This document shows, piece after piece, positions 10,392 through 55,459 of a stretch of DNA of 64,000 bases (the stretch's first letter is position 1; each line of letters starts with the position of its first letter). The position numbers and the translations under genes were made by a program. The DNA is from Steroidobacteraceae bacterium (GTDB taxonomy: Bacteria; Pseudomonadota; Gammaproteobacteria; Steroidobacterales; Steroidobacteraceae), in the NCBI GenBank assembly GCA_052143815.1, contig JBKQSA010000103.1:53763-117762 (forward strand), given 5' to 3'. The notes under the pieces are model-generated. The model did not search any database. It saw nothing but the letters and a program-made list of their open reading frames with translations, and was not told where the DNA came from.

Positions 10392-10395
10392 TACT

Positions 10396-11073: not shown

Positions 11074-11103
11074 CGGACCTCTGCTAAACTTTGCGGGTTT
11101 TTA

Positions 11104-11189
11104 GCCCTCGTGGCGGAATCGGTAGACGCAACGGACTTAAAATCCGTCGGTTAACAGCCATCCCGGTTCGAGTCCGGGCGAGGGCACCA
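11104..11189 (+). tRNA. tRNA-Leu (anticodon UAA)
   Basis: Acceptor stem GCCCTCG/CGAGGGC, anticodon arm ACGGA-CTTAAAA-TCCGT (TAA), long variable arm, T arm CCCGG-TTCGAGT-CCGGG, and an encoded CCA. Confidence 0.95.
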
Positions 11190-13518: not shown

Positions 13519-13624
13519 AGATCAGGCCACTGCTTGATATCGCGTTACAAGAACGCCTCGTTCTGCCGATAAGGCGGCTGCGTAGAACGAATGCTTCCGG
13601 ACTTGAAAAGGGCACCCATCGGTC

Positions 13625-37407: not shown

Positions 37408-38526
37408 ATGACGTCGATGGCTTTCAGTCGAATTCGCACTGCATTGCTGCTGTTGATGGTGAGTACGATGGTAGGTTTCGGCGTTCGTGCCGCCGCGGCC
37501 GAAGAGAAACGCTTGTTCATTTATAACTGGACCGACTTCATCGGTCCCGACACCATCGAAAAATTCGAGAAATTGACCGGCGTCAAGGTGACCTACGACG
37601 TCTACGACGCGGAGGAGACCATGGAGGCGAGGCTCATGGCCGGCAGTTCGGGTTACGACGTGGTGAGCGCGTCGACCGATTTTTTCAGCCGCGAGATCAA
37701 GGCCGGCGTCTATATTGCCTTGGACAAATCCAAGTTGCCCAACTGGCATAATCTCGATCCGCGGATATTGGCCATCCAGGCCGCCTACGATCCCGGCAAC
37801 GCCCATGCGGTACCGTACCTGCATTCCATCAACGGATTCGCCTACAACGTCGATATGATCAAGGCGCGCATGCCGAACGCGCCGGTGGACAGTCTGGACA
37901 TGATATTCAAGCCGGAAGTGGTGTCCAAATTTGCCGATTGCGGCGTGACCTTTCTCGACTCGGCGGAAGACGTGCTGCAGCTGGCGCTGCGGTACTTGGG
38001 ACTCGATCCCAACACCACTGACGCCAAGGACTTCGAGGCCGCCGAGGCCATGCTGCTGAAAGTGCGTCCCTTCATTCGTTCTTTCGATTCGTCGGAATAC
38101 ATGAACGGACTCGCCAACAAAGAGGTTTGCGTCGCGATGTCCTGGTCCAGCGACTATGCGTTGTCGAGCGCACGTGCTCGGGCCGTCGGGGTTCGGTTGA
38201 ACCTGGCGTTCACCGTGCCGAAAGAAGGCGCCAATCAGACGTTTTCGTCGCTTCTCATTCCCGAAGGAGCTCCGCATCCGCAAGCCGCCTATCAATTCAT
38301 CGACTTCATTCTGCGGCCGGACGTCATCGCCGAGATCACCAATTCGATCTATTATGGCAACGACAATATCGCGTCGCGATCCTTGGTCGATCCGCGTATT
38401 CTCAACGACGTGACGCTCTATCCCACACCGGACATGGAGCAGCGGCTCTACAGGTCTGCGGAAGTGACCGCGGCGACGGAGCGCATTCGTACCCGTACGT
38501 GGACCCGTGTCAAGACCGCTAAATGA
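37408..38526 (+). CDS. potF: Putrescine/polyamine ABC transporter substrate-binding protein PotF-like
   Basis: Matches remembered E. coli PotF along its length: LFIYNWTDFIGPDTIEKFEKLTGVKVTYDVYD, LDKSKLPNWHNLDP, FTVPKEGA and C-terminal RIRTRTWTRVKTAK. Confidence 0.9.
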   Translation: MTSMAFSRIRTALLLLMVSTMVGFGVRAAAAEEKRLFIYNWTDFIGPDTIEKFEKLTGVKVTYDVYDAEETMEARLMAGSSGYDVVSASTDFFSREIKAGVYIALDKSKLPNWHNLDPRILAIQAAYDPGNAHAVPYLHSINGFAYNVDMIKARMPNAPVDSLDMIFKPEVVSKFADCGVTFLDSAEDVLQLALRYLGLDPNTTDAKDFEAAEAMLLKVRPFIRSFDSSEYMNGLANKEVCVAMSWSSDYALSSARARAVGVRLNLAFTVPKEGANQTFSSLLIPEGAPHPQAAYQFIDFILRPDVIAEITNSIYYGNDNIASRSLVDPRILNDVTLYPTPDMEQRLYRSAEVTAATERIRTRTWTRVKTAK

Positions 38527-38545
38527 GTGAACGGTGAGGACTGCA

Positions 38546-39115
38546 ATGAACAGAATCGTCAGTTTCCGGCGGATGGAAGATGGTACCCGCGAAGACTACG
38601 AATTGTTGGATGAAGCCGAGCGTGAGTTCGTTCGTCGGCTGCCCGATCGCCTATTGGCATCGCTCGGCAGGCTCGATAATTCGCTCGAGGGATATCCAGT
38701 GAGCCGCCTCGAGCATTCGCTGCAGGCGGCTACCCGCGCGCTCGAGGACGGCGCCGATGACGAACTCATCGTGGCGGCACTCATCCACGACGTCGGCGAC
38801 GAACTGGCTCCTTACAACCACGCGGCGATCGCCGCCGAGATCCTGCGGCCGTATGTCCGCCGCGAAGTGACGTGGATCGTGGAACAGCATGGGTTATTCC
38901 AAAGCTATTACTATGCCCATCATCTGGGCGGTAATCGCAATGGGCGCGATAAGTTTCGTGATCATCCCTGGTACCAGGCGTGCAAGGATTTTTGCGCGAA
39001 TTGGGATCAGTGTTCGTTCGATCCCCACTATCGGTGGGAGTCGCTCGCCCGCTTCGAGCCTCTGCTGCGAGAGATTTTCACCCGGCCGCCGCATGATCCG
39101 CGGTACGTGACTTAA
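38546..39115 (+). CDS. HD-domain metalloprotein (PhnZ/MIOX-like block)
   Basis: RLEHSLQAATRALEDGADDELIVAALIHDVGD. The ATG at 38546 is preceded by GAGGA. Confidence 0.7.
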   Translation: MNRIVSFRRMEDGTREDYELLDEAEREFVRRLPDRLLASLGRLDNSLEGYPVSRLEHSLQAATRALEDGADDELIVAALIHDVGDELAPYNHAAIAAEILRPYVRREVTWIVEQHGLFQSYYYAHHLGGNRNGRDKFRDHPWYQACKDFCANWDQCSFDPHYRWESLARFEPLLREIFTRPPHDPRYVT

Positions 39116-39212: not shown

Positions 39213-40043
39213 TTACCGTTCGGCCAGCTGCGCGTCCATGAGGCGATGCCGTTCCGCTCGGCGCATGAAGTATCCGGCGAGCAGCACGCACGCGCCGACC
39301 AGGCAGATGATGAGGCTGGCGAGTGCGTTGATGTCGGGGCTGACGCCGAGTTTGACCTTCGAAAAAATCACCATCGGCAGCGTGCTTGCCCCGGGGCCCG
39401 ATACAAAGCTGGAAATCACCAGATCGTCGAGCGACAAGGTGAAGCTGAGCAGCCAGCTGGACGCCAGCGCGGGCGCGATGCCGGGCAATGTGGTATCCAC
39501 GAAGGCACGCACCGGACCGGCGCCGAGATCCATGGCGGCTTCCTCCAACGATCGGTCCGCACTTTGCAAGCGCGACTGCACGGTGATCGTCACATAGGCG
39601 GTGCAAAAAGCAATGTGCGCGATCACGATTGTCGTGAAACCGCGATGCGGCCAGCCGAACAGATGCAGCATCGACACGAACAACAACAACTGCGTGATGC
39701 CGGTGATGATCTCGGGCATCACCAACGGGGCGTTGACCATGCCCGTGAGCAGCAGACGGCTGCGAAATACTTTGAACCGGACCAGGGATATCGCAGCCAG
39801 GGTGCCAAGGATCACTGCGCCGGTGGAGACGACTACGCCGATTTGCAGCGACAACCATGCAGCGTCGAGAATCTGGTCATTATGCAATAGCTGCGTGTAC
39901 CAGCCGGTGGAGAAACCGCCCCAGACGCTCACGAGGGCTGAAGCATTGAAGGAGTAACCGATAAGCACGAGAATAGGCACGTATAGAACGGCGATGCCGA
40001 TGCAGAGGATCGAGATCAGCAGCGGTGATACACGCTCGTTCAT
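39213..40043 (-). CDS. potI: Polyamine ABC transporter permease PotI/PotC-like
   Basis: MNERVSPLLISILCIGIAVLYVPILVLIGYSFN... with an EAA loop (LEEAAMDLGAGPVRAF). ATGA overlap with the upstream permease gene. Confidence 0.85.
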   Translation of the reverse strand: MNERVSPLLISILCIGIAVLYVPILVLIGYSFNASALVSVWGGFSTGWYTQLLHNDQILDAAWLSLQIGVVVSTGAVILGTLAAISLVRFKVFRSRLLLTGMVNAPLVMPEIITGITQLLLFVSMLHLFGWPHRGFTTIVIAHIAFCTAYVTITVQSRLQSADRSLEEAAMDLGAGPVRAFVDTTLPGIAPALASSWLLSFTLSLDDLVISSFVSGPGASTLPMVIFSKVKLGVSPDINALASLIICLVGACVLLAGYFMRRAERHRLMDAQLAER

Positions 40044-40978
40044 GAGGCTTCCAACTGCTTGGTGCTGTAGTGCTGGTAGAGGGCAATCGGTCCAACCAGC
40101 AGCACCAAGAATGCAATGGCGACGGCGGACGCCACCGGCCAATCGCGGTTGCCGAAAAATTCATCCCATAGCACGCGGCCGATCATCAGATTGTCAGGGC
40201 CACCCAACAGCGTGGGGATGACGAATTCGCCGATCGCGGGGATGAACACCAGCATGGAACCGGCGATGATCCCCGGCATGGACAGAGGCAGGGTCACGTC
40301 GATGAATGCGCGCCACGGGGGGCTCCCCAAGTCGGCGGCCGCCTCGAGCAGGGAAGGGTCCAGCTTCTCCAAGGTCGCGAACAGCGGCAGCACCATGAAC
40401 GGCAAATACGAATAGATGATGCCGAGGTACACCGCAAAGGTCGTTCGCATGATCTGTAAGGGGTGATGGATGATGCCCAACCACAGCAGTGCCGAATTGA
40501 GCAGCCCGGTCTCGCGGATGATGCCCTCGAGCGCGTAGACGCGCAGCAGGAACGAGGTCCAAAACGGGAGAATGATGATGAGCAGCAAAATACTTTGCGT
40601 ACTTTTCGAGGTCCGTGCAATGGCGTAGGCCATGGGATAGCCAAGAGCCAAACAGATGAGCGTAGAAAAAAAAGCCGTCTTTATCGAATATAAATAGGAA
40701 AGGCCATACACTTGATCGGTGAACAGATACTTGAAGTTGCCGAGGTTCAACGTCATGTGGACATGCCAATCCGGGCTCATGGAAAAGATATCCGTGAACG
40801 GAGGCACCCTCACCGCGGTGTCGGCGAAGCTGATGACCAGAGCGAACGCGAACGGAATGAGGAAAAAAACCAGGAGGAACAGCAGCGGCGGCAGAATGAT
40901 CAGCCATTTACCGTGGCGTTTCAGCCACTCGCCCCTCGAGGGCCCGCGCCAGTCGCCGCGCGGCCGCGTATCAGCCAT
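40040..40978 (-). CDS. potH: Polyamine ABC transporter permease PotH/PotB-like
   Basis: WLIILPPLLFLLVFFLIPFAFALVISF and LLEAAADLGSPPWRAFIDVTLPLSMPG. The start at M43 of ORF 40040..41104 is provisional. Confidence 0.85.
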   Translation of the reverse strand: MADTRPRGDWRGPSRGEWLKRHGKWLIILPPLLFLLVFFLIPFAFALVISFADTAVRVPPFTDIFSMSPDWHVHMTLNLGNFKYLFTDQVYGLSYLYSIKTAFFSTLICLALGYPMAYAIARTSKSTQSILLLIIILPFWTSFLLRVYALEGIIRETGLLNSALLWLGIIHHPLQIMRTTFAVYLGIIYSYLPFMVLPLFATLEKLDPSLLEAAADLGSPPWRAFIDVTLPLSMPGIIAGSMLVFIPAIGEFVIPTLLGGPDNLMIGRVLWDEFFGNRDWPVASAVAIAFLVLLVGPIALYQHYSTKQLEAS

Positions 40979-40993
40979 GAGCGTGAACTTCAA

Positions 40994-42733
40994 TTGAGCC
41001 CGCGAAAAAAGACGAACAAGGAGGCGTCCGGCGCGCCCCGAGCGCGCAAGACCCATGGCCGGCAGCGCCAGCGATTGATCGAGGCATGCATATCGGCGCT
41101 GCACATCTACGGTCCGTCACGGACCACCGTGGAAAAAGTCGTGGCGATTGCGAAAATGTCACCTGGCATCGTTCGATTCTACTTCGACTCCAAAGCCGCC
41201 ATGCTCGTCGCATCGTTGCAATTCCTCGCCGCCGAATTCGAGGAACGGCTGTTGGTCCCCGTGGCAAAACTCAAATCAACGCCCGTAGCCGCGCTCGAAC
41301 TGATCGTCGATCTGTATCTCGACCCGGACATTGCCAGTCCCCGCAAGGTGTCCGTTTGGTATGCATTTTGGGGCGAGGCAAACTCCCGGCAGGAATACTA
41401 CGACATTTGCGGACAGAAGGACGAGAGCTTCGCAGCATTGGTTCGCGAATTGATCGAGAGTTTGATCATCGAGACCTCGCAGCCGCAGTTGGACCCGGAC
41501 GGAATCGCCCTCGGCCTCATCGGCGTGCTGGAAATGCTATGGCAGGATTTCGCTTTTCGAACGGAGCGCAATATCGATCGTGCCGCAGCCAAGCGGCGCT
41601 GCATGGCCTACCTGCGTTCGATATTCCCCGGCCAGTTTGCCGTATCGGACGGCCACGCGTTGCCGCCCGTGGCCTTACCGGTTGGCGTCGGGCGATTACC
41701 GGGATGGGCGTATGCGGATGCGCGCATTCATGCGATGGAGCGCGAGCTGCTGTTTCAGAACGCTTGGGCGGTAGTAGGCCACGAATCGCAGGTCGCGCAC
41801 GCGGGGGAATTCCTGTGTATCGACAGCGGCGCCGAACGGGTGCTGGTGGTGCGTGACGCCTTGGGGGCCGTGCATGCGTTGCGAAATAGCTGCCCGGAGT
41901 CGCCGCACGCGCTGCTCCCCGCCCGCCGCGGTCGCTTGGACGCGGGCATCGAGTGCAAGCTGCACGGGCTACAGTTCCGTTTGAACGGTAAGTGTGCGAC
42001 GGGGTCGGGGCGGATGGATTTGGGTGTTCTCGATTGGTCATCAGTGGGCGGGCTGATGTTCGCGAAATCAGCCGCCCGCGAGCGGTCGGCCGACGCGCCG
42101 GCCCCCGCAGCATGGTTCGACGCGGCACCACCGCAAGGTTTGATGATGCTTGGCCCCGCCATCGAATTGCCTGTAGCCGCCGATTGGAAAGTCGTGGTCG
42201 AACAATGGCTCGATTCGACCATGCACGGCGTGGCGCCCTACGGGACGCCCTACGGGACGGCCGATTTCGCGCCGAGCCCTGCGGTGGATTCGATGGTTTG
42301 GCATGCCGCGATCTTGAGTGACCCCGGCTGGAGCGGGCGCCGCTATCGGAAGCTGATGGCGTGCACTTCGGAACGCACCTGGCGCCGGCAATTCATCGCG
42401 CCGAATCAGTTGCTGGAAACGCGCCCCGATGGCTTGGCGGTGGTGCAGGCCATTCCCGTCGCGCCCGGACGTTGTCTCGTGCGCCGGCTGGACTACAGCG
42501 TGCTTGCGCCGGACGCAGGCTCGATGGCGGTGCTGCATCTTGCGCGGCGTTTGGGGCCGTATGCTCGAAGAACGACGCGGGATGTAGCGGAATCCATACA
42601 GAAGGGGATGGTCGAATTCGGCTATCAAGTCGCGCCCGGCGCGCCGATTTCGCCGGCCGTCGCTTGGTTTCGCAATCGCCTCGCTGCCCGCATTCCCGCA
42701 CTGGCGCGCCGCCAGCCACCGACCGATACCTGA
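40994..42733 (+). CDS. Fusion protein: BetI/TetR-type regulator joined to a degenerate Rieske-oxygenase alpha-subunit-like domain
   Basis: A single open frame. The TetR HTH is RQRLIEACISALHIYGPSRTTVEKVVAIAKMSPGIVRFYF, with a BetI-like core (VWYAFWGEANSRQEY). About 390 aa follow that are paralogous to the 44345..45541 product, with altered ligands (CPESPH...CKLH). The start is uncertain (TTG 40994). The part of ORF 40712.. upstream of that lies antisense to potH. Confidence 0.8.
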   Translation: MSPRKKTNKEASGAPRARKTHGRQRQRLIEACISALHIYGPSRTTVEKVVAIAKMSPGIVRFYFDSKAAMLVASLQFLAAEFEERLLVPVAKLKSTPVAALELIVDLYLDPDIASPRKVSVWYAFWGEANSRQEYYDICGQKDESFAALVRELIESLIIETSQPQLDPDGIALGLIGVLEMLWQDFAFRTERNIDRAAAKRRCMAYLRSIFPGQFAVSDGHALPPVALPVGVGRLPGWAYADARIHAMERELLFQNAWAVVGHESQVAHAGEFLCIDSGAERVLVVRDALGAVHALRNSCPESPHALLPARRGRLDAGIECKLHGLQFRLNGKCATGSGRMDLGVLDWSSVGGLMFAKSAARERSADAPAPAAWFDAAPPQGLMMLGPAIELPVAADWKVVVEQWLDSTMHGVAPYGTPYGTADFAPSPAVDSMVWHAAILSDPGWSGRRYRKLMACTSERTWRRQFIAPNQLLETRPDGLAVVQAIPVAPGRCLVRRLDYSVLAPDAGSMAVLHLARRLGPYARRTTRDVAESIQKGMVEFGYQVAPGAPISPAVAWFRNRLAARIPALARRQPPTDT

Positions 42734-42786
42734 AAATTCACTATACTGGCGACCTTCGCGACGATCACTGAATGGGAGAATTTCGT

Positions 42787-44286
42787 ATGACCCTGGCTTC
42801 CTTGAGCACCAGCGACTGGCATGCACGCGCCGCAAGCGTGCGTTACGAGACCGGACATTTCATCGACGGCAAGGCGGTGGATTCGGTGGCGAAGGGCCGT
42901 TTCACCGTGGTCAATCCTGCCACCGGCGCGCCGCTGTGCGAAGTGAGCGCCGGCACCGCCGCCGATATCGATCTGGCCGTCGCAGCGGCGAAGCGCACCG
43001 TGAAATCCCGCGTATGGAGCCGCATGGCGCCTCGCGATCGCATGGCCGTGCTGGCGGCGTATGCCCGGTTGATCGATGCGAATGCCGAGCGCTTCGCGCT
43101 GCTCGACACGCTTTGCATGGGCAAGCCGATCTCCGATATGGTGAACATCGATGTGCCTTCTGCGGCGAAGAATTTCGCCTATTTCGGCGAGCTCGTGGAC
43201 AAAATCGACGGCGCGGTGACCGCCACCGCGCAGGACGCCTTCCATTACATTTTGCGCGAGCCGTTGGGCGTGGTGGGTTGCATCGTGCCGTGGAATTACC
43301 CGTTGTTGATGGCGGCCTGGAAAGTCGCGCCGGCGCTGGCGGCGGGCAATTCGGTGGTGTTGAAACCCGCGGAACAGTCGCCCTTGTCGGGGCTGCTGAT
43401 GGCTCAATTGTTCGTCGAGGCGGGCGGCCCGCCGGGCGTGTTCAACGTCGTGAACGGCTTGGGCGAAACCGCGGGCGCTGCATTGGCGCTGCATAGCGAT
43501 GTCGCCAAGATTGCATTCACCGGTTCAACGGAGATCGGCAAGCAGATGCTGATTTACGCCGGCCAATCCAACATGAAGCGCGTGGCGTTGGAATGCGGCG
43601 GCAAGACGCCGCAGATCTTTCTCGCCGACATGCCCGACATGGACACCGCCGTCACGTATGCGATCAATGGCATCTACGGCAACATGGGCGAGGTGTGCAA
43701 TGCCGGTTCGCGGCTTTTGATCGATCGTCCCATCGCGGAGGAATTCATCGCCCGATTCATCGAAAAGGGCAAATCGGCGTATAAGGCCGGCGACCCGCTC
43801 GATCCGACCACCAACTTGGGGCCGTTGGTCACCGCATCGCACCGCGCGCGCGTGATGAATTACATCACCCGCGGCAAGAGCGAAGGTGCGCGCTTGGAAT
43901 TCGGCGGCAATACACCGGATCTGCCGGGCGCCTACGTCAATCCGACCCTGTTCACCGGCGTGAACAATCGAATGACCATTGCTCAAGAAGAGATCTTCGG
44001 ACCGGTGGCGGCCGCGATTGAAATCGACGGCATTGCCGAAGCTTTGACGGTGGCGAACGATTCGATCTACGGTTTGGCCGCCTCGGTATGGACGCGCGAT
44101 CTGTCGGTGGCACACAAAACGGTGCGGGACTTGGAGGCCGGCGTCATCTGGGTGAACTGTTTCGACCACGGCGACATGACGCAGCCGTTTGGCGGCTACA
44201 AGCAATCCGGCCAAGGTCGCGACAAATGCCTGGAGAGTTTGATCTCTTACACGCAGACCAAGTCGGCGTGGATCCATTTGGGTTGA
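42787..44286 (+). CDS. Aldehyde dehydrogenase, PuuC-like (aminobutyraldehyde-type)
   Basis: FTGSTEIGKQM, LECGGKTPQIF, EVCNAGSRLL and DHGDMTQPFGGYKQSGQGRDKCLESL, which closely resembles the E. coli PuuC tail. The ATG at 42787 follows GGGAGA. Confidence 0.9.
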   Translation: MTLASLSTSDWHARAASVRYETGHFIDGKAVDSVAKGRFTVVNPATGAPLCEVSAGTAADIDLAVAAAKRTVKSRVWSRMAPRDRMAVLAAYARLIDANAERFALLDTLCMGKPISDMVNIDVPSAAKNFAYFGELVDKIDGAVTATAQDAFHYILREPLGVVGCIVPWNYPLLMAAWKVAPALAAGNSVVLKPAEQSPLSGLLMAQLFVEAGGPPGVFNVVNGLGETAGAALALHSDVAKIAFTGSTEIGKQMLIYAGQSNMKRVALECGGKTPQIFLADMPDMDTAVTYAINGIYGNMGEVCNAGSRLLIDRPIAEEFIARFIEKGKSAYKAGDPLDPTTNLGPLVTASHRARVMNYITRGKSEGARLEFGGNTPDLPGAYVNPTLFTGVNNRMTIAQEEIFGPVAAAIEIDGIAEALTVANDSIYGLAASVWTRDLSVAHKTVRDLEAGVIWVNCFDHGDMTQPFGGYKQSGQGRDKCLESLISYTQTKSAWIHLG

Positions 44287-44344: not shown

Positions 44345-45541
44345 TCAGCCGCGGCGTACCTCGCTGAACTGCTTCGGCGCCGCCGGCAACCGAAACTCCG
44401 GTATGCGCTCGCGCAGCAGATCGTGGAATTCGAGCATGCAACCTTCGAGCTGCGACAGCGGGCCGGGTCTATAGCTGCTCGACGCTAGGCCCCGTTGGAC
44501 GCGCTCGCACAACCATTTATCCTCGTTGTTCACGGAGGCATTGATGCGGTTGCTCAAGAATCGGACAGCGCGCATTTCCCGAGTCGTGCTCGGCAAACCG
44601 AATACCGCGCCGCGAATGATGCATTTTCCGGGACCCGCAGGCAGCACTTGGAAAAAGTCCATTTGGTCCGGGTACACGTCGATGCCTAAATTGGGCAAGG
44701 CGCTGTAGAACCGCCAAACGCGGCGCTGGTCCTCGGGCAAATGCGCGACTGCCCGCCCGATCAGCGATTGATACAGGCCTTCAGACCAGCGCGGCGATCG
44801 CTTCTCGCGCAGCCAGCTCGAGCCCCGAGCAACGCCCGGCACCGTGGCCTGATCCTCGTAGTCCGGAGTGAACATGCGGAATAGGCCAGGGTGGCCGATG
44901 GGTACGTGGTAGGACTCCAGGTAGTTATCCATCGCTATCTTCCAGTCGACATTCCACACATCCGACGAGATAGGGCTGAGCGGCACCATTTCCTCGCAGC
45001 GATAGGCGGCAAGTTCCTCACCGAGCTTTCCCCACATCAGGGACACGGGCTGGGGGAGGCCAAATTCGGAATCGGGCGCCAGGCAGACGAAGACGAAACC
45101 AAAGGCGATATCCGTGCGCACAGACCTGAGTCCATGGTCCGCACGATTCAGACCGGGGAAGCTCTCCTTCACCGGCATGCCGATCAGCGCGCCATCGTGA
45201 CGATAGGTCCAGCCGTGATAGGGACACGTGATGGTCGCCGGGCAGGTTCCGGCGCCATCGAGTAAACGGGCCCCACGGTGACGGCAGACGTTGTGGAACG
45301 CCCGGATGGACCCGTCGCGATCTCGTAGCACGAGCACGCTTTCGGGGCCCAAATCGAACGTCGCGTAATCGCCGGCCTTGGGAATCGAATTGACGTGACA
45401 AACGATCTGCCAGCTTGGCATTAAAACGCGTTCGCGTTCGAGCCGGGCGAGCTCAGGATGGCTGTATACCCACGCCGGTAGGGCGCGCGGCAATCCGGCA
45501 TCGGCAGCATTGGCGGGTGTCGCGGCGGACCAGCTGTGCAT
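44345..45541 (-). CDS. Rieske non-haem-iron oxygenase alpha subunit (GbcA/choline-monooxygenase-like group)
   Basis: CRHRGARLLDGAGTCPATITCPYHGWTY and DNYLESYHVPIGH. A GGAGA Shine-Dalgarno lies upstream. Confidence 0.88.
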   Translation of the reverse strand: MHSWSAATPANAADAGLPRALPAWVYSHPELARLERERVLMPSWQIVCHVNSIPKAGDYATFDLGPESVLVLRDRDGSIRAFHNVCRHRGARLLDGAGTCPATITCPYHGWTYRHDGALIGMPVKESFPGLNRADHGLRSVRTDIAFGFVFVCLAPDSEFGLPQPVSLMWGKLGEELAAYRCEEMVPLSPISSDVWNVDWKIAMDNYLESYHVPIGHPGLFRMFTPDYEDQATVPGVARGSSWLREKRSPRWSEGLYQSLIGRAVAHLPEDQRRVWRFYSALPNLGIDVYPDQMDFFQVLPAGPGKCIIRGAVFGLPSTTREMRAVRFLSNRINASVNNEDKWLCERVQRGLASSSYRPGPLSQLEGCMLEFHDLLRERIPEFRLPAAPKQFSEVRRG

Positions 45542-45694
45542 AGCGTTTTCTCCGTCCCGATTATATGGCTGTTTAATTTACGCCGGTTTACGGCCGGTTG
45601 GCAAGTAACCGGCAGTGCAGCAGGGAAATTGCGACAAAATCCGCGCAATTCGACCGCCCTAAGGGGTGCACAAAGCGCGCCGATGACATTGGAA

Positions 45695-45710
45695 TTATAT
45701 GGTCATATAA
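45695..45710. promoter_or_regulatory. Perfect palindrome TTATATG-GT-CATATAA in a divergent promoter region
   Basis: Read directly. A half-site copy, TTATATGG, is at 45561..45568 next to the Rieske gene start. Confidence 0.45.
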
Positions 45711-45795
45711 AAAATGTGGACGCCTTGCACGGCGGATGATACGTTTCCACCATCCGCAACCCGCGGGGCCGCCTACAGAAGTCAAAGGGGATGCC

Positions 45796-47124
45796 ATGGC
45801 GAGAAATCTCACCAACAGCAATGCACATTTCAAGCGCGCCGTGAAGCGGCTGCCGTTGGGCGTTGCTTCGAATTTCCGCTACTGGGGCGACGATCGGACC
45901 ATCTATGTGAAACACGGGAAGGGTGCTCGAATCGTCGACCTGGACGACAACGTGTATGTCGACTACCGCATGGGCTATGGGCCGGCGATTTTGGGGTATG
46001 CCGACGAACGCGTCGACGCCGCGGCCCGCGAGGGTATGGAAGTGGGCGGTGTATTCGCCTTGTCGACGGAACGCGAACTGAGGGTGGCCGAGCGCATTTC
46101 CAAAATGGTGCCGGCGGCGGAACTCGTGCGCTTCTCGAATTCCGGAACCGAAGCGGTGATGGCGGGTTTGCGCCTCGCGCGTGCCTACACGGGCAAGGAC
46201 GATTACGTGATTTTGGAGGGCAGCTATCACGGCTTGTTCGATGCCGCGATGTGGTTCACGCCCATGGATAAATGGTCGCAGGTGGGCGATCCGGAAGTTA
46301 AACCGTACAGCGAAGGCGTGCCGGTCAGCACGAGGAGCTTCGCGCATTTCGTGCAGGCTAACGACGCCAATCAGCTGGAGGACGTATTCAAGCGCCATGC
46401 GCAACGCATCGCGTGTTTGTTGATCGAGCCGATCATGGGCAACTGTCTCGGCATCGCGGCCGAGCCGGAGTATCTGCGCGCCGCGCGCGAGCTATGCGAC
46501 AAGCACGATGTGGTGTTGCTCATCGACGAAGTCAAAACCGGGTTCCGCGTGGCGCGCGGCGGCGTCCAGGAGCTGTATAACATCACAGCCGATTTGTGCA
46601 CGTTCGCGAAGGCGCTTGGGAACGGTTATCCCATTTCCGTGCTTGCAGGCCGCGAAGAGATCATGCGCAAGATCGGTCGTGGTGTCGCGCACGGCGGCAC
46701 CTACACGGCGCACTCCGTGTCTCTGGCCGCCGCCGAGAAGTGTCTCGAGATTCTCGACGAAACGGACGCCCTGGAACGGGTCGCCGCTTACGGCACGAAT
46801 CTGCGCAATGGCATGCGCGCGATATTGGCAGCGCGGGGAATCGCGCACAGCTTCGTCGGCCATCCATCGATGAGCGGTCTGTATTTCGCCCATGAGCCGC
46901 CGCGCAATTATCGCGCGTGGAAGAGCAGCGACTACTCGTTCTATGATGCGATGGCTCAGGTGTTGCACGACGAAGGCATCTTGTGCGAACCCGACTCGCG
47001 CGAACCGTGGTTCGTTTCCGCCGCGCACGACGCAGCATGTCTTGCCGATACGCTGAAGGGATTCGAGATTGCGGTGGATGCCACACTGCAGTCGAGCGGC
47101 GCGACGCATAAAGTGCCTGCTTGA
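45796..47124 (+). CDS. Class III aminotransferase, HemL (GSA aminomutase)-like subgroup
   Basis: RFSNSGTEAVMAGLRLARAYTGKDDYVILEGSYHG, LLIDEVKTGFRVARGG and TFAKALGNGYP. The ATG at 45796 follows AAGGGGA. Confidence 0.85.
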   Translation: MARNLTNSNAHFKRAVKRLPLGVASNFRYWGDDRTIYVKHGKGARIVDLDDNVYVDYRMGYGPAILGYADERVDAAAREGMEVGGVFALSTERELRVAERISKMVPAAELVRFSNSGTEAVMAGLRLARAYTGKDDYVILEGSYHGLFDAAMWFTPMDKWSQVGDPEVKPYSEGVPVSTRSFAHFVQANDANQLEDVFKRHAQRIACLLIEPIMGNCLGIAAEPEYLRAARELCDKHDVVLLIDEVKTGFRVARGGVQELYNITADLCTFAKALGNGYPISVLAGREEIMRKIGRGVAHGGTYTAHSVSLAAAEKCLEILDETDALERVAAYGTNLRNGMRAILAARGIAHSFVGHPSMSGLYFAHEPPRNYRAWKSSDYSFYDAMAQVLHDEGILCEPDSREPWFVSAAHDAACLADTLKGFEIAVDATLQSSGATHKVPA

Positions 47125-48749
47125 GCGCCGAACCGGCAGGATCGGCTGCGGTGGGTCATCCTAAGGACCTCGACGCCATCATTGTCGGGGCGGGTCACAA
47201 CGGGTTGGTGGCGGCGTGCTATCTGGCGCGCGCTGGATTGAAGGTGCTGGTGCTGGAACGCAACCCCTTCATCGGCGGCGCAGCGGTCAGCCGCAAGCTC
47301 TACAAGGACTTTACGTACTCGAATTGTTCCTACGTGTGCAGCCTGCTGCGCCCGGAAATCATGCGCACCTTGGAATTGCCCAAATTCGGGCTGCAGATCA
47401 TTCCGTATGAAGGCGGCTGCACCATGATGCAGGGCGGCGGGCATCTGGCCCTTTACGACAACCACGATGCGTTGCGCCGGGAGATTTCGCGGCATTCCAA
47501 GCGCGATGCGGAGGCGTACGACCGGTACTCGAGGGACGTAATGCGTCAGTGCAAGTTCATCAAGCCGCTGCTGATGCGCGAGCCGCCCGATCCCGCCTCG
47601 TTCAAACCGCGCGATATCCAGGAACTTCTGTATCTCGGCAAGCGCTTTCATGGCCTGGGCGAGGAGCGCATGTACGACACGCTGCGCTTCTGGACCATGA
47701 GCGCCGCCGATTTTCTCGACGAATACTTCGAAAGCGAAATCGTCAAAGCGCATTTTGCGGGCAGTTCCATCATCGGCACGGCGTTGGGGCCGCGCTCGCC
47801 GGGGACCGCGTATGTCTTGCTGCATCATTATATGGGCGATATCGACGATACCGTCGGCGCCTGGGGGTTCGCGCGCGGCGGTATGGGCGCGATCAGCAAT
47901 GCGTTGGGGGCGTCCTTCCTGGCGAGCGGCGGCGCCATTCGCAGCGCCGCTCCGGTGACGCAGATTCTGGTGAAGAGCGGTCGGGCCGCCGGAATCGTAT
48001 TGGAGGACGGCGAGGAGATTCGCGCACCGCTGGTGATATCGAACCTGGATGTGCGTCGCACGTTTCTGAAGACCATGGACGCGAAGGACTTGCCCGATGA
48101 GTTCTTGAAGCAGGTCAAGAATTTCAAGATTCGGGGGTCGTCCGGCAAGCTCAATATTGCGCTCGACGGTTTGCCGCGCTTCCCGGCCATACCGGAAGGC
48201 AGCCCAAGCACCCGCGGCGACATGCATGTCACCGACACCATCGAAATGATGGAGCGTGCATACGACGACTGGAAAGAGGGCCGTTGGTCGCGGGCGCCAT
48301 ATATCGATATGTTGATTCCATCGCAGATCGATCCCAGCATGGTGCCGAACGGCAAGCACTACATGTCGGTGTTCGTGCAGTACTGTCCTTATGAACTGGC
48401 CGATGGCGAATGGACTGCCGCCAAACGGCAGGCATTCGGCGAAACCGTCATCAACACCATCGCGCGTCACAGTCCCAACTTCAAGGATCTGATTCTGCAC
48501 GCCGAGATCCGCACGCCCTGGGATATTGAAAACGAAGTCGGACTCACCGAGGGCAACATCTTTCAGGGGGAGTTGACCATGGATCAGTTGTTGTTCAATC
48601 GCCCGGTGCCGGGCTACGCGCAATATCGATCACCGGTGCGCGGCGTTTACATGTGCGGGTCCAGCACGCATCCCGGTGGCGGCGTGATGGGTGCGCCGGG
48701 CGCCAATGCCGCCCGTGCCGTGCTCAAAGATCTAGGGAAGGCGCACTGA
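47121..48749 (+). CDS. FAD-dependent oxidoreductase, phytoene-desaturase/amine-oxidase (CrtI-like) superfamily, copy 1
   Basis: DAIIVGAGHNGLVAACYLARAGLKVLVLERNPFIGGAA dinucleotide-binding motif and C-terminal GVYMCGSSTHPGGGVMGAPG. TTGA overlap with the upstream gene. Confidence 0.8.
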   Translation: MSAEPAGSAAVGHPKDLDAIIVGAGHNGLVAACYLARAGLKVLVLERNPFIGGAAVSRKLYKDFTYSNCSYVCSLLRPEIMRTLELPKFGLQIIPYEGGCTMMQGGGHLALYDNHDALRREISRHSKRDAEAYDRYSRDVMRQCKFIKPLLMREPPDPASFKPRDIQELLYLGKRFHGLGEERMYDTLRFWTMSAADFLDEYFESEIVKAHFAGSSIIGTALGPRSPGTAYVLLHHYMGDIDDTVGAWGFARGGMGAISNALGASFLASGGAIRSAAPVTQILVKSGRAAGIVLEDGEEIRAPLVISNLDVRRTFLKTMDAKDLPDEFLKQVKNFKIRGSSGKLNIALDGLPRFPAIPEGSPSTRGDMHVTDTIEMMERAYDDWKEGRWSRAPYIDMLIPSQIDPSMVPNGKHYMSVFVQYCPYELADGEWTAAKRQAFGETVINTIARHSPNFKDLILHAEIRTPWDIENEVGLTEGNIFQGELTMDQLLFNRPVPGYAQYRSPVRGVYMCGSSTHPGGGVMGAPGANAARAVLKDLGKAH

Positions 48750-48750
48750 C

Positions 48751-50319
48751 ATGGCGCCGCGACGCGCGCCACCGCGCTATGACTGCATCGTAATCGGCGG
48801 CGGTCATAACGGCTTGGTCTGCGCCGCCACCTTGGCGCGCGGCGGGCGTTCGGTGCTCGTACTGGAGGCGCAGTCGCACGTCGGCGGAGCGTCCTCGACA
48901 CGAGAATTCGCGCCGGGATTTCAGGTGTCGGCCTGCGCGCATCTGTTGCATCTCATGCCCGCCGAACTGATCCGTGAACTCAAGTTGGAATCCCATGGCC
49001 TCAAATGGTCCGCGCAGAGCATGCCGACCACGGCCTTGCTTGCCGGCGGCTCGCCGTTGGCCGTGAATCGATCCGGTTTGTCGGGTTCGGATGCCGCGGC
49101 TTATGCGGTGTATTACGCGCGCATGCGGCGCTTCGCCCAGGCGCTGGCGCCGCTCCTCGGCAAGGTGCCCCCGCGATTGGGCACTGCCGATTGGTCCGAT
49201 CGTTGGGCACTGCTCGGCTTGGGTTGGCAGATCCGCAGGCTCGGTCGGCGCGACATGCGCGAGTTGCTGCGGATCGGCGGGATGAACGTCTTCGATTTGC
49301 TCGAGGAGAACTTCGAGTCCGATATTCTCAAGGGCGCACTGGGGTTCGACGCCGTGCTCGGCACGAATTTCGGTCCGCGTTCTCCGGGAACGGTGCTGAC
49401 CCTGCTGTACCGTCTGGCTGCCGAATTCGCGGGCGGTCCCACCACTTTGTCGCAACCGGCCGGCGGCTTGGGCGCATTGTGCGATGCTCTGGCGAAGTCG
49501 GCGGCCCACGCAGGCGCGGAAATCCGCACCGCTTCGCCGGTGGCGCGCATTCTGGTCGAAGCGGATCGGGCGGTGGGAGTGGAACTCGTGTCCGGCGAAC
49601 GCATCGCGGCCGCAGCGGTGGCGTCGAGCGCCGACCCCAAGACCACGTTCCTGAAGCTGCTCGGCACGCGGCACCTGGACACCGGCTTCGTGCGCCGCGT
49701 GCAGCATTTTCGCGCGAAAGGGCTGGCCGCCAAGCTGCATCTTGCGTTGGACCGCGCGCCGCAATTCGCCGGCGTCGATGCCGCAGCCTCGAGTGGCCGG
49801 TTGCTGCTGGCCCCTTCGTTGCACTATCTCGAGCAGGCTTACAATCACGCCAAATACGGGGAGTATTCGTCCGCTCCCGCCCTTGAAGTCACCGTTCCCA
49901 CGATCAACGACCCTGGGCTGGCGCCGCCCGGCAAGCACGTGCTGTCCGCCATCGTGCAATACGCGCCTTATGCGCTCAAGGCCGGCTGGCAAAGCCAGCG
50001 GGAGCGATTCACGGAGCTGTGCATCGATACGTTGGAGAGCGTGGCGCCAGGCCTGCGCGGCAGCGTGCTCAAAGCGGAATTGCTGACGCCGGTGGACATC
50101 GAACAAGAACACGGCATCGACGGCGGCCACTGGCATCATGGCGAATTGGCGTTCGATCAATTCTTCATGGTTCGTCCGGTTCCGGGAGCCGCGCAACATC
50201 GCACGCCGCTGCCGGGCTTGTACTTGTGCGGAGCCGGCTGCCACCCGGGAGGCGGAGTCATGGGTACGGCGGGCCGCAATGCCGCGCATCAGCTCATGAA
50301 ACCGGGTGCCGCCCCATGA
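48751..50319 (+). CDS. FAD-dependent oxidoreductase, CrtI-like superfamily, copy 2 (paralogue)
   Basis: YDCIVIGGGHNGLVCAATLARGGRSVLVLEAQSHVGGAS and GLYLCGAGCHPGGGVMGTAG. Starts 1 nt after the previous stop. Confidence 0.8.
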   Translation: MAPRRAPPRYDCIVIGGGHNGLVCAATLARGGRSVLVLEAQSHVGGASSTREFAPGFQVSACAHLLHLMPAELIRELKLESHGLKWSAQSMPTTALLAGGSPLAVNRSGLSGSDAAAYAVYYARMRRFAQALAPLLGKVPPRLGTADWSDRWALLGLGWQIRRLGRRDMRELLRIGGMNVFDLLEENFESDILKGALGFDAVLGTNFGPRSPGTVLTLLYRLAAEFAGGPTTLSQPAGGLGALCDALAKSAAHAGAEIRTASPVARILVEADRAVGVELVSGERIAAAAVASSADPKTTFLKLLGTRHLDTGFVRRVQHFRAKGLAAKLHLALDRAPQFAGVDAAASSGRLLLAPSLHYLEQAYNHAKYGEYSSAPALEVTVPTINDPGLAPPGKHVLSAIVQYAPYALKAGWQSQRERFTELCIDTLESVAPGLRGSVLKAELLTPVDIEQEHGIDGGHWHHGELAFDQFFMVRPVPGAAQHRTPLPGLYLCGAGCHPGGGVMGTAGRNAAHQLMKPGAAP

Positions 50320-51524
50320 CGTCTGCGAAAACGCTCGCGCCCCACTTCAAGCAACCGCTGCTCGAAACTCCGTTTCACGCCCGGGCCAGGGCCTTGAGTC
50401 AAGTCGACAGCTTCGTCGCGTGGGCCGGCTACACGACCGTCGATGTCTTCACGTCGGTCGAGCAGGAATACTTCGCGATTCGCAATGCGACGACGCTCTA
50501 CGATTTGACGCCGATGGTGAAGTATCGAATCGCCGGCCCGGACGCCGTGCCGTACTTGAACCGCTTGGTGACGCGCGATCTTGCGAAGCTCAAACCCGAT
50601 CGCGTCGCGTACTGCGTCTGGTGCAACGATGCCGGTCGCCTGATCGATGACGGCACCGTGTTCCGGCTGGGGGAGGCTGAATTCCGCCTCTGTACCGCCG
50701 AACGGCAGATCGACTGGTTGCTGGATTCCGCCATCGGTTTCGATGTAAAAATCGCTGAAGTCACCGAGGACATTGCGGCGCTCGCGGTGCAAGGGCCCAC
50801 TTCCTGTGCCGTCTTGACGGCAGCCGGCCTGGCCGGAATCGACCGGTTGAAACCCTTCGAGATCGGCTATTTCAACGTCGACGGGCGACCACTCACCGCA
50901 TCGCGTACCGGTTTCACCGGCGACCTCGGCTATGAGTTGTGGATGGCGCCGCAGGACGCGGAAGCGGTATGGGATGCCTTGATGGCGGCGGGGCGCTCGC
51001 GGGGTATTCGCGCAATCGGCTCGCAGGCACTCAACATTGCGCGACTCGAGGCGGGGTTTCTGAGTCCGAATGTGGATTTCATATCCGCGGAACATACCAT
51101 TCGCCCCGGCCGAGATCGCTCGCCGTTGGAATTGGGTCTTGCGTGGCTGGTCGATTTCGACAAGGGACATTTCAACGGCCGTCGCGCGCTCCTGGCAGAA
51201 CGTCGGCGCGGCCCGCGCCGACAGCTCGTCGGATTGGACATTGCGGGCAACAAGCCCGCCCACAATGCCCTCTTATATGCCGAGGCCAACGGTAAGCGCG
51301 AAATCGGCAGCGTCAGTTCGGCGGCGTGGTCGCCGACTTGCAAGCGCAACATTGCCCTTGCTATGGTCGAGGCATCGCACGTCCGGATAGGATCGACGGT
51401 CTGGGCGGAAATCTATCTTAACCGTGAACTCGTGTGGGAGCGCCGTATGTCGCGTGCCGTGGTGGTGGAGCGTCCGTTTTTCGCGCCGAGCCGACGCCGC
51501 GCAACCCCACCGACCGAGTTTTAG
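50316..51524 (+). CDS. Aminomethyltransferase (GcvT/DmdA)-family folate-binding protein
   Basis: LYDLTPMVKYRIAGPDAVPYLNRLVTRDL, AALAVQGP, SRTGFTGDLGYELW and EAGF. ATGA overlap with the upstream gene. Confidence 0.85.
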   Translation: MTSAKTLAPHFKQPLLETPFHARARALSQVDSFVAWAGYTTVDVFTSVEQEYFAIRNATTLYDLTPMVKYRIAGPDAVPYLNRLVTRDLAKLKPDRVAYCVWCNDAGRLIDDGTVFRLGEAEFRLCTAERQIDWLLDSAIGFDVKIAEVTEDIAALAVQGPTSCAVLTAAGLAGIDRLKPFEIGYFNVDGRPLTASRTGFTGDLGYELWMAPQDAEAVWDALMAAGRSRGIRAIGSQALNIARLEAGFLSPNVDFISAEHTIRPGRDRSPLELGLAWLVDFDKGHFNGRRALLAERRRGPRRQLVGLDIAGNKPAHNALLYAEANGKREIGSVSSAAWSPTCKRNIALAMVEASHVRIGSTVWAEIYLNRELVWERRMSRAVVVERPFFAPSRRRATPPTEF

Positions 51525-51535
51525 GCTCCTAGCGC

Positions 51536-52681
51536 GTGGTGTCGACGCAGCAGAAATCGATCGCCGACCGACCCTGGCTCGATCCCGACGCCAGACCGCA
51601 GATCGTCATCGAAAGCATCGACAAGACGTTCGGCGCATTCACCGCCGTCGACAGCGTCAACTTGAGAATCTACAAGGGCGAGATGTTTGCCCTGGTCGGT
51701 GCCTCCGGGTGCGGTAAAACAACGTTGCTCCGCATGCTTGCTGGGTTCGCCACCCCCACCGGCGGGCGGATCATGATCGATGACGTGGACATGACCACGG
51801 TCCCGCCGCATGAGCGCCCGGTCAACATGATGTTCCAGTCTTATGCTTTGTTCCCGCACATGACGGTCGAGCAGAACGTGGGCTACGGCTTGCGCCGCAT
51901 GTCGCTCGAGGCCCCCGTCAGGAACAAGCGCATCCAAGATGCGCTGGAGATGGTGCAACTGGGGGCCTTGGCAAAGCGTAAACCACATCAACTCTCCGGC
52001 GGACAACGGCAGCGCGTCGCGCTGGCGCGTGCGCTCATTCGCCGGCCGAAGGTGCTGTTGCTGGACGAGCCGTTAAGTGCTTTGGATAAGAAATTGCGGG
52101 AGCAAACGCAATTCGAGCTCATGAATATTCAGTATCAGGTTGGCATCACGTTTGTTTTCGTTACCCATGACCAAGACGAGGCCATGGCGCTGTCCACGCG
52201 CATCGCCGTGATGAACCGGGGCCAGGTCTTGCAGGTGGGCACGCCGTCCGAAATCTATGAATTTCCGCAGAGCCGATTCGTCGCCGATTTCATCGGCACC
52301 ACCAATCTCTTCGAAGGCACGGTGAGCGGCAGCGAGCGAGGGGCTATCACCGTGCGCAGCGCGGAGGCCGGTTGCGACCTGGTCGTCGATGAGCTTGGAC
52401 GTTTCGGCAGCGGTCAGCGTGTGTGGGTTGCCTTGCGCCCGGAGAAGATACGCCTGAGCAAGCAGCCGGTCGACGGCAGCGGCATGAATCAGATGAAGGG
52501 CGTCGTGTGGGAGTTGGGTTATCTCGGCAATCGCTCCACCTACCGCATCAAGACGGAGACCGGCAAATTGGTTACGGTGTTCGCTCAAAACGACCGCCGC
52601 ACTTCCGAGTGGTCGATCGATTGGAGCGATGAGGTCTATCTCAGTTGGTCCGCCAACGGCGCCGTCATTTTGCAGCAGTGA
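51536..52681 (+). CDS. potG: Polyamine ABC transporter ATPase PotG/PotA-like
   Basis: GASGCGKTTLLRMLAGF, LSGGQRQRVALARAL and LLLDEP, followed by a C-terminal regulatory (TOBE-like) domain. Confidence 0.9.
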   Translation: MVSTQQKSIADRPWLDPDARPQIVIESIDKTFGAFTAVDSVNLRIYKGEMFALVGASGCGKTTLLRMLAGFATPTGGRIMIDDVDMTTVPPHERPVNMMFQSYALFPHMTVEQNVGYGLRRMSLEAPVRNKRIQDALEMVQLGALAKRKPHQLSGGQRQRVALARALIRRPKVLLLDEPLSALDKKLREQTQFELMNIQYQVGITFVFVTHDQDEAMALSTRIAVMNRGQVLQVGTPSEIYEFPQSRFVADFIGTTNLFEGTVSGSERGAITVRSAEAGCDLVVDELGRFGSGQRVWVALRPEKIRLSKQPVDGSGMNQMKGVVWELGYLGNRSTYRIKTETGKLVTVFAQNDRRTSEWSIDWSDEVYLSWSANGAVILQQ

Positions 52682-52688
52682 GCATCCA

Positions 52689-55452: not shown

Positions 55453-55459
55453 GCTCATC

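Follow-up and report, generated by a model that had tools for sequence, protein, structure and literature searches.

A BetI-type TetR module fused in frame to a predicted Rieske-oxygenase pseudoenzyme in a putative amine-catabolic cluster of Steroidobacteraceae

How a transcriptional repressor comes to carry a whole oxygenase subunit, and what that subunit might do there, is the question raised by a gene in a 64,000-nucleotide stretch of DNA from a Steroidobacteraceae bacterium (GenBank assembly GCA_052143815.1, contig JBKQSA010000103.1, positions 53,763 to 117,762; this whole stretch is called the window and is numbered from its first letter). The gene (40994..42733, plus strand) encodes a protein of 579 amino acids (aa) in which a BetI-type TetR module is joined by a linker to a module like the alpha subunit of Rieske oxygenases, predicted to be a pseudoenzyme; the assignment is based on the open frame, the G+C content at third codon positions (GC3), Pfam and NCBIfam profiles and homologues. 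An earlier reading of the letters alone (the original prediction) had placed both modules in one uninterrupted frame, and this is what is found: 579 codons run from a TTG start to a stop at 42731-42733, the same frame being open from 40712, GC3 is about 0.74 and even along the entire open reading frame (ORF), and the other two frames are without a coding signature. The start position is matched by homologues, which begin M/V-S-x-R-K-K at the same place. The order of parts is a BetI-type TetR module (aa 21-211), a variable linker of about 25 aa and a complete alpha-subunit-like module (aa 236-570). The linker, at about aa 213-235 (41630..41698, plus strand), is delimited by variable, gapped alignment columns and by an AlphaFold confidence (pLDDT, the predicted local distance difference test) below 50 at aa 219-239; the model of the fusion has a mean pLDDT of 70.7, with values of 75-94 across most of the oxygenase-like half.

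The architecture is spread well beyond this contig. More than 120 full-length database relatives (545-590 aa, 57-92% identity), all with TetR_C_6 and Rieske domains, bear automatic names only, such as "TetR/AcrR family transcriptional repressor of bet genes", and a scan of one genome per species finds relatives in 232 genomes. The best 80 of these 232 are all metagenome-assembled genomes (MAGs) classified as Steroidobacteraceae, Steroidobacterales, Nevskiaceae or unclassified Gammaproteobacteria/Pseudomonadota, and nearly all 80 inspected relatives have the same amine-catabolic cluster. Both halves share one unbroken ORF in 74 of the 74 loci in which both were located at a coverage of at least 70%, with no stop or frameshift between them. 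It is conceivable a priori that separate TetR and oxygenase genes have been merged by a sequencing or assembly error through a lost stop or a frameshift, and six related loci do contain frame changes; these loci all come from Nanopore-derived MAGs, and in some of them the frame is likewise lost in the TetR half or in the neighbouring oxygenase gene, so that we read the changes as sequencing indels. Set against the 74 independently assembled loci, the more than 120 proteins of the same architecture and a linker that can be aligned even with the distant fusions described below, an artefact of this kind is next to impossible, and the intact ORF together with a ratio of nonsynonymous to synonymous substitution rates (dN/dS) below 1 likewise rules out a pseudogene. 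A full-text literature search, in which few subscription journals were covered, found neither a description of a TetR-Rieske-oxygenase fusion nor any Rieske-oxygenase-derived regulatory domain, in agreement with the earlier remark that the architecture is unlike characterised TetR regulators. The family is thus common, occurring in 232 species-level genomes, but known under automatic names and not as a characterised one; it appears to be a real, conserved, widespread and seemingly uncharacterised regulator architecture.

The N-terminal half had been taken for a complete TetR module with a helix-turn-helix (HTH) and a BetI-like core, which the profiles bear out. The DNA-binding helices (aa 21-73; 41054..41212, plus strand), delimited by Pfam TetR_N, the BetI model and the alignment columns, are nearly invariant in the family; TetR_N itself is marginal at aa 39-73 (22.4 bits, E 1.1e-4, slightly under the cut-off of 24) and is matched by all 32 aligned family members at E≤0.01. 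The BetI-type C-terminal ligand/dimerisation domain (aa 97-211; 41282..41626, plus strand), which includes a W-Y-A-F-W-G-E motif, matches Pfam TetR_C_6 with 55 bits against a cut-off of 27 over 114 of 115 profile positions, and NCBIfam BetI models align over aa 23-208. The nearest solved structure for this half is the TetR regulator 3e7q (aa 23-190, E 4.9e-9), the AlphaFold model is helical through aa 210, and about half of the TetR-half columns are invariant in the family alignment. On these profile matches the protein is assigned to the BetI-type (TetR_C_6) subgroup of the TetR family, but not to BetI proper, because it scores below the equivalog cut-offs (70.4 bits versus 201.3 for TIGR03384 and 60.5 versus 118 for NF001978), no bet genes adjoin it and the palindrome in its cluster is unlike the betI box.

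The second half is recognisable as an oxygenase alpha subunit from end to end. Its Rieske-fold domain (aa 258-336; 41765..42001, plus strand) scores 42.1 bits against a Pfam cut-off of 20.3, is modelled with a pLDDT of 88-94 and aligns with solved oxygenase Rieske domains, and the NCBIfam GbcA model, the best NCBIfam oxygenase match, aligns at aa 235-334. The remainder (aa 346-570; 42029..42703, plus strand) has a fold like that of the oxygenase catalytic domain without the iron ligands, as judged from hhalign, Foldseek and PF00848; the Ring_hydroxyl_A score of the window protein is a sub-threshold 13 bits, and PF00848 is matched by 9 of 32 family members. The full-length resemblance to the neighbouring oxygenase (44345..45541) that had been noted by eye is confirmed by BLASTP, in which the C-terminal 357 aa are 24% identical to that enzyme over 367 columns (E 3e-30), and by comparison of the two family profiles with hhalign, which gives a probability of 100% (E 6.7e-57) over 350 columns comprising both the Rieske and catalytic domains. 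Foldseek searches with the AlphaFold model retrieve whole alpha subunits, including terephthalate dioxygenase (TPADO), the stachydrine demethylase Stc2 and the carnitine monooxygenase CntA, at E values of about 4e-15 and target-normalised TM-scores of 0.56-0.65. The module is therefore predicted, by profile and model alike, to keep the complete alpha-subunit fold.

The cofactor sites are another matter. The residues and positions given for them in the original prediction are correct, and its description of the module as cofactor-degenerate applies fully to the iron site and only in part to the Rieske box. The altered box, C300-P-E-S-P-H305 ... C321-K-L-H324 (41891..41965, plus strand), has lost the canonical histidine at position 302; in alignments with solved oxygenases C300, E302, C321 and H324 occupy the four Rieske ligand positions, so that three of the four canonical ligands are kept (C300, C321 and H324), and P304-H305 is additionally invariant. 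The pattern C-x4-H...C-x2-H is found in 113 of 113 relatives and the canonical C-x-H in 5 of them, the residues at position 302 being E (84), A (10), Q (8), H (5), R (2), V (2), D (1) and N (1). The iron-binding helix persists as a remnant, D-W-K-V-V-V-E-Q-W-L-D-S-T-M-H-G-V-A-P-Y (42182..42241, plus strand), recognised by alignment and profile comparison. Its first part, D-W-K...E-x-W-L-(E/D), is conserved; in real oxygenases this helix holds the carboxylate that bridges to the Rieske centre of the adjacent subunit, and the corresponding position is conserved here as well (D407 in the window protein, E in most relatives). Where the iron motif E-S-Y-H-x4-H would follow, the window protein has D407-S-T-M-H-G-V-A-P-Y: both histidine ligands are gone, the downstream stretch is hypervariable and gapped, the motif is present in 0 of 113 relatives, and the invariant E-D that provides the third iron ligand in standalone enzymes aligns with T-T of the fused family. 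Because all three mononuclear-iron ligands have been lost across the family, the fused module of the window's clade should be unable to act as an oxygenase and is almost certainly catalytically inactive. We class it as a predicted pseudoenzyme, since the alpha-subunit fold is present but neither cofactor site has its canonical ligand set.

An inactive module need not be an unselected one. By the method of Nei and Gojobori, applied to 1267 pairs with unsaturated synonymous distance (the synonymous distances are high and the values are rough for that reason), dN/dS is 0.087 for the TetR half (aa 21-215) and 0.34 for the oxygenase-like half (0.27 in the Rieske part and 0.39 in the catalytic-like part), compared with 0.07 for the aminotransferase, 0.08 each for a flavoprotein, the aldehyde dehydrogenase and a permease, and 0.13 for the standalone oxygenase of the same cluster. 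Among the closest pairs the TetR half has values of 0.07-0.09 and the dead half values of 0.23-0.30 (0.09 and 0.23 in the closest pair of all, the window and L002), and rough as the estimates are, the two halves differ consistently. Purifying selection is strong on the HTH and TetR_C_6 domains; it acts on the dead module as well, but is three to four times more relaxed there than on the TetR half and the pathway enzymes, and no other coding segment of the cluster evolves as fast. Most of the invariant residues of the dead half are common to real oxygenases, namely the fold core, the metal box and the D-W-K helix, and no obviously new pocket is seen among them.

The module had also been thought to be a copy of the neighbouring oxygenase, and on this point our analysis leads elsewhere. 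When the oxygenase-like half was searched against 1.84 billion cluster representatives, 53 of the best 150 matches also carried a TetR N-terminus, and these were of two kinds, one with the degenerate box and a length of about 490-590 aa, the other with the canonical CRH...CPYH and N-Y-L-E-G-Y-H-x4-H motifs and a length of about 590-630 aa. At least 118 full-length proteins make up the intact family; most are encoded in alphaproteobacterial MAGs, and their names are automatic ones only (among them 'transcriptional regulator BetI' and 'SRPBCC family protein'). The canonical Rieske box is kept in 113 of these 118 and the iron motif in 106 of 118, and Ring_hydroxyl_A scores in the family are 117-132 bits. 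One of its members, P0206 (MBM3584233.1), is 27% identical to the window protein (E 1e-63), in an alignment that runs from the TetR half through the linker into the oxygenase half. Since homology to alphaproteobacterial fusions that keep their ligands extends through the linker as well as both halves, the architecture appears to go back to one old fusion within which degeneration occurred. In a rough neighbour-joining (NJ) tree without support values the degenerate fused halves form one long-branched clade apart from the neighbouring standalone oxygenases, and the intact fusions interleave with standalone enzymes. A recent duplication of the neighbouring oxygenase can be rejected on the 24% identity, the separate NJ clades and the full-length homology to distant fusions. 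The residue at Cys+5, which is H305 in the window protein, is H in 47, S in 38 and A in 28 of the intact fusions; since intact relatives have any of the three, the position is an ancestral polymorphism, fixed as histidine only in the clade in which the canonical histidine was lost, a pattern that fits a ligand swap but does not prove one.

P0206 is encoded in the L082/L083 locus (fusion at L082 8001-9872), 15 bp upstream of a standalone oxygenase gene (9887-11113) whose product is 57% identical to the oxygenase half of P0206 itself; other intact fusions lie at L084 6001-7857 and L085 6001-7869 or are represented by the proteins P0195, P0226, P0246 and P0286-P0401. Two of the intact-fusion loci have no neighbouring oxygenase gene. 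The intact fusions, with all their ligands in place, may be genuine oxygenase-repressor 'trigger enzymes'. A longer database protein, P0242 (1342 aa, from an ENA metagenome contig), combines TetR, Rieske, no more than the start of Ring_hydroxyl_A (aa 416-443) and the ATPase and membrane domains of an ATP-binding cassette (ABC) transporter, and may be either a further fusion or a gene-calling or assembly error.

If the fusion protein is a repressor, its probable targets are the standalone oxygenase gene and a candidate regulated operon at 45793..52681 (plus strand), which encodes a class-III aminotransferase, two amine-oxidase/CrtI-type flavoproteins, a GcvT-like aminomethyltransferase and an ABC ATPase. 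An alignment of 62 oxygenase/aminotransferase intergenic regions shows conservation in four blocks only: two palindromic sites, a -35-like TTGGCAAG block and the ribosome-binding site. Candidate operator 1, TTATATGGCTGTTTAATTTACG (45561..45582, with a 16-bp palindrome at 45561-45576), is a weaker copy of the family consensus TTATATGGTCATTTAATTTACG; it lies 20-35 nucleotides (nt) from the oxygenase start codon in the window (10-40 nt across the family) and overlaps the predicted -10 element of the oxygenase gene's promoter-like site on the minus strand (TTGCCA at 45604-45599 as the -35, which is conserved, 18 nt, and TAAATT at 45580-45575). Candidate operator 2 is the 7-2-7 palindrome TTATATG-GT-CATATAA at 45695..45710, about 83-98 nt upstream of the start of the aminotransferase operon. 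Its degenerate form TTNNATGNNCATNNAA occurs once in the 64 kb, compared with an expected 0.01; the palindrome (TTATATG-nn-CATATAA) is exact in 26 of 81 related loci, and TTATATGnnCATATAA is found with at most two mismatches in 73 of 82 sources (the 81 loci and the window). The 7-2-7 palindromes were missed by a general repeat search of promoter regions and were found by pattern searches. On their conservation and position, the two palindromes are likely operators of the fusion protein.

The two sites are about 134 bp apart in the window, and the distances between them in the family fall in classes of about 121, 133, 144, 156, 169 and 177 bp, in steps of about one helical turn; the Rayleigh statistic for their phasing peaks at 0.6, at 11.25-12 bp. 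The classes are compatible with looping and are linked to phylogeny, and because they follow phylogeny the helical phasing is suggestive only. A 7-2-7 palindrome, TTGAATGGACATTCAA, also stands 63 bp upstream of the intact fusion P0206; among the intact-type loci this form is common to L082/L083 only, the upstream regions of L084 and L085 having different palindromes such as TTGGCTGGACGTTCAGCCAA. A candidate autoregulatory operator at the start of the fusion gene, TCAATTGA at 40989-40996, was rejected as it is not conserved in other loci. Paired palindromes resembling the window's candidate operators, TTATACA(G/A)CCATATAA, were observed about 5.5 kb upstream of the fusion gene in L057 (379-394 and 566-581) and also in L061, L073, L075 and L032, relatives that are without the HD-protein gene described below; there they precede a gene of the same cluster for a TonB-dependent receptor (Plug and beta-barrel), itself located immediately ahead of the binding-protein gene. 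No counterpart of these paired sites occurs in the window. The palindrome at P0206 and these paired sites count in favour of the operator assignment.

We propose that the protein functions as a BetI-type TetR repressor to whose C-terminal end a dead Rieske-oxygenase alpha subunit is permanently attached, an explanation that, taken as a whole, we consider about equally likely to be right or wrong. TetR dimers would bind the two conserved 16-bp palindromes, at the oxygenase promoter and upstream of the aminotransferase operon, and thereby repress an amine or quaternary-amine catabolic cluster, and a pathway compound (an amine) would relieve the repression. That the fusion protein is a repressor acting at these palindromes is the more secure part, and we think it probable. 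The dead module would be retained for its remaining conserved features, that is, the fold, the metal site and the subunit interface: in the form we prefer it would build a higher-order repressor oligomer, as oxygenase alpha subunits form trimers, and this oligomer would bridge the two operators and pass to the DNA-binding domains a signal generated either by ligand binding at the former active site or by the metal site's state. Such a structural and signalling role is preferred over a simple pocket on two grounds: conservation is seen in the core and interface and not in residues specific to a pocket, and the BetI-type domain, too, is highly conserved. Oligomerisation or operator bridging by the dead module is a reasonable possibility falling short of an even chance, effector binding by it one that we put forward more tentatively, and the two are not exclusive.

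Several observations weigh against this proposal. TetR_N is under its Pfam cut-off, and the AlphaFold pLDDT is 33-45 for aa 1-80, a low model confidence in the TetR half that we attribute to a shallow, nearly invariant alignment. The phasing of the operators rests on about six independent values with a spread of 3-4 bp within classes; within the window, neither the start of the fusion gene nor the vicinity of the transporter genes has a related palindrome, and the palindromes could belong to another regulator. TetR_C_6 is so conserved that sensing may be wholly its own. The dead half falls to 35-47% identity while the pathway enzymes hold 75-95%, which indicates weak constraint and counts against a precisely conserved ligand pocket. 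A simpler alternative takes up the original prediction that the module is the repressor's effector-sensing domain: the former active site would act purely as a sensor that binds a pathway substrate or intermediate and allosterically releases the TetR part from DNA, with TetR_C serving for dimerisation only. In its favour, the whole substrate-binding fold is kept, as seen in the model confidence and the Foldseek matches, and the aromatic residues W398, W405, W446, Y451, W463 and F467, which might conceivably make up a cage for a cation, are invariant or nearly so in the catalytic-like part; the principle is known from MocR/GabR-type and ROK-type regulators, and the GbcA-like NCBIfam matches and CntA and Stc2 folds point to descent from quaternary-amine oxygenases. 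It sits badly, however, with the dN/dS of the catalytic-like part and with such divergence of sequence in a conserved pathway, presumably with a conserved effector, and also with the hypervariable, gapped segment that replaces the iron ligands, the coincidence of most invariant residues with those of real oxygenases and the very strong constraint on the BetI-type pocket domain; we regard it as possible but unlikely. The same relaxation would suit a functionless relic, tolerated since its removal would destabilise the repressor or delete the translation signals of the downstream gene: dN/dS is 0.34 versus 0.07-0.13, identity is low and all catalytic ligands are lost. Yet dN/dS is well below 1 even in close pairs, the 74 loci have no stop or frameshift despite deep divergence, certain residues do not vary in any of the 50%-identity cluster representatives aligned and the half is retained in 232 species-level genomes, so that we hold a relic to be very unlikely.

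Other readings start from the metal box. The Rieske-like domain might hold a [2Fe-2S] cluster or another metal on C300, H305, C321 and H324 and make the protein a redox-, O2- or iron-responsive regulator, possibly in a mixed trimer with the neighbouring oxygenase alpha subunit that couples the state of the enzyme to transcription. None of the four Cys/His residues varies, nor does P304, whereas the canonical histidine position drifts, and a Cys+5 histidine fixed only in the clade without the canonical one is a pattern that fits a swap of ligands. The residue at Cys+5 in bc1-type Rieske proteins adjoins the cluster and forms a loop-bridging disulfide. The kept bridging-carboxylate position, the near-constant presence of the standalone oxygenase as a neighbour and the intact fusion lying 15 bp from its 57% identical paralogue would fit as well. 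We know of no precedent for a C-x4-H Rieske box, however, the Cys/His site could be structural (binding zinc, for example), and no reductase gene is seen among the window genes scanned; the mixed trimer is uncertain because the fused and neighbouring modules are only 24% identical. An iron-sulfur (Fe-S) regulator of this sort is in our judgement improbable. More elaborate, and decidedly improbable, is a version in which a shifted-ligand [2Fe-2S] cluster is combined with head-to-tail assembly, either with itself or with the neighbouring oxygenase, the TetR domain reads the redox or substrate state of the Rieske centre and the intact alphaproteobacterial fusions are true trigger enzymes. For the window protein itself to be such a bifunctional trigger enzyme, an active oxygenase and a repressor in the manner of PutA, is scarcely credible: the sister family is intact in its Rieske box, iron motif and Ring_hydroxyl_A scores, and some intact loci have no other oxygenase gene nearby, but the window's clade is without iron ligands in 113 of 113 relatives and without the canonical Rieske histidine in 108 of 113.

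The proposed repressor with its dead module shares features with several known systems. With BetI/TetR_C_6 repressors it has in common the N-terminal HTH, the BetI-type C-terminal domain with its W-x-x-F-W-G-E motif, and, as candidate operators, AT-rich palindromes overlapping the promoters of a quaternary-amine/amine catabolic cluster. BetI2 of Ruegeria pomeroyi likewise has two operator boxes in a divergent promoter region, and the characterised betI box is ATTGACG*CGTCAAT (PMC12442346). The window palindrome TTATATGnnCATATAA does not match that box, the cluster is without betA, betB and betT, and the fusion protein carries an extra module of about 345 aa. We know of no characterised BetI with such a module. 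The GbcA/CntA/Stc2-type monooxygenases share with it the whole alpha-subunit fold, the D-W-K and E-x-x-L-(E/D) helix and three of four Rieske ligands; unlike them, the fused module has no 2-His-1-carboxylate site, has its canonical Rieske histidine replaced, gives a sub-threshold Ring_hydroxyl_A score, is attached to a DNA-binding domain and has a dN/dS 2.6 times that of the real oxygenase next to it. The intact TetR-Rieske fusions have the same domain order and homology over both halves and the linker, one of them has the upstream 7-2-7 palindrome and some adjoin a standalone oxygenase paralogue, but they keep all cofactor ligands, are 590-650 aa long and occur in other taxa and in different neighbourhoods; they too are uncharacterised. 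PutA, an active enzyme and repressor with a ribbon-helix-helix domain that responds to the redox state of its flavin adenine dinucleotide (FAD), and other trigger enzymes resemble the fusion in the covalent joining of a DNA-binding domain to a catabolic redox-enzyme module of the pathway that is regulated; the fusion differs in its dead enzyme module and its TetR-type DNA-binding domain. MocR/GabR-type and ROK-type regulators use enzyme folds as non-catalytic regulatory domains, and GabR still binds pyridoxal 5'-phosphate (PLP), a parallel to the possibly retained metal site of the fusion; they differ in their GntR-type winged HTH, their aminotransferase or sugar-kinase fold and their domain order. 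To the Fe-S factors SoxR, IscR and RsrR the fusion, with its four invariant Cys/His residues, has no homology.

TetR regulators are the textbook two-domain one-component switch, and a member that carries a whole oxygenase subunit, in a fusion conserved over hundreds of uncultured soil-bacterial species, may illustrate the way in which enzymes are incorporated into genetic switches. There is a graded natural series, from intact fusions with all ligands, through forms with the canonical Rieske histidine but no iron site, to the fully dead window form, which makes the conversion of an enzyme to a regulatory module directly testable. Should the altered Cys/His box bind a cluster, it would represent a new Rieske ligand arrangement and a new kind of Fe-S transcription factor; the shifted-cluster, enzyme-coupled reading would, if true, define a new class of Fe-S one-component regulator, and a module serving only to oligomerise the repressor would give TetR regulators a new way of bridging operators. 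The palindrome pair and the conserved cluster offer a handle on an uncharacterised amine/quaternary-amine catabolic pathway in uncultured Steroidobacterales, and might also supply a new sensor scaffold for biosensor design.

The standalone GbcA-like oxygenase (44345..45541, minus strand) scores 80.7 bits for Rieske and 125.4 bits for Ring_hydroxyl_A, has all ligands in canonical CRH...CPYH and E-S-Y-H-x4-H motifs and is present in 75 of 81 related loci; no reductase or ferredoxin partner for it was found among the 30 window proteins scanned, a subset of the ORFs. Between it and the fusion gene, 38 nt 3' of the latter, lies a gene for an aldehyde dehydrogenase resembling PuuC and betaine-aldehyde dehydrogenase (42772..44286, plus strand; in 59 of 81 loci), probably co-transcribed with the fusion gene. 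On the other side are a PotF-like binding protein and a PhnZ-like HD protein (37408..39115, plus strand), followed by two ABC permeases (39213..40978, minus strand) between the HD gene and the fusion gene. The gene order is retained in about 75 of 81 loci, with the fusion followed by the aldehyde dehydrogenase in most; the GcvT-like protein and ABC ATPase after the flavoproteins are found in the window and in L001. No other regulator gene is seen among the conserved cluster genes. The permease ATG (40978, minus strand) and the fusion TTG (40994) are divergent and 15 nt apart (15-20 nt in related loci), and because the start codons are so close both divergent promoters must sit within the coding region of the opposite gene; no promoter-like site was detected there.

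The HD protein (193 aa; 38534-39115, plus strand), encoded between the PotF-like and permease genes and present in 57 of 81 related loci, weakly matches the phosphonate-degrading HD oxygenases of the PhnZ/TmpB type (TIGR03276, E 2.5e-10, far under the cut-off), a hint that the cluster may act on a quaternary amine or an aminophosphonate-like compound. An ORF of 410 aa (52629-53861, plus strand) that follows immediately on the ABC ATPase gene has a coding-like GC3 of 0.80 and no Pfam or NCBIfam match at E≤1e-5. Further downstream (53965-56089 and 61964-62863) the window contains a separate carnitine-type cluster with a carnitine 3-dehydrogenase (584 bits versus a cut-off of 592), a beta-keto acid cleavage enzyme (BKACE) gene and a second, ordinary BetI-like TetR gene (55460-56089, 209 aa), the product of which is 24% identical to the TetR half of the fusion over 108 aa. 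In L001, whose fusion is 73% identical to that of the window, a CcdA/CcdB toxin-antitoxin pair (13337-13908) is located between the aldehyde dehydrogenase and oxygenase genes, and the rest of the cluster is unchanged.

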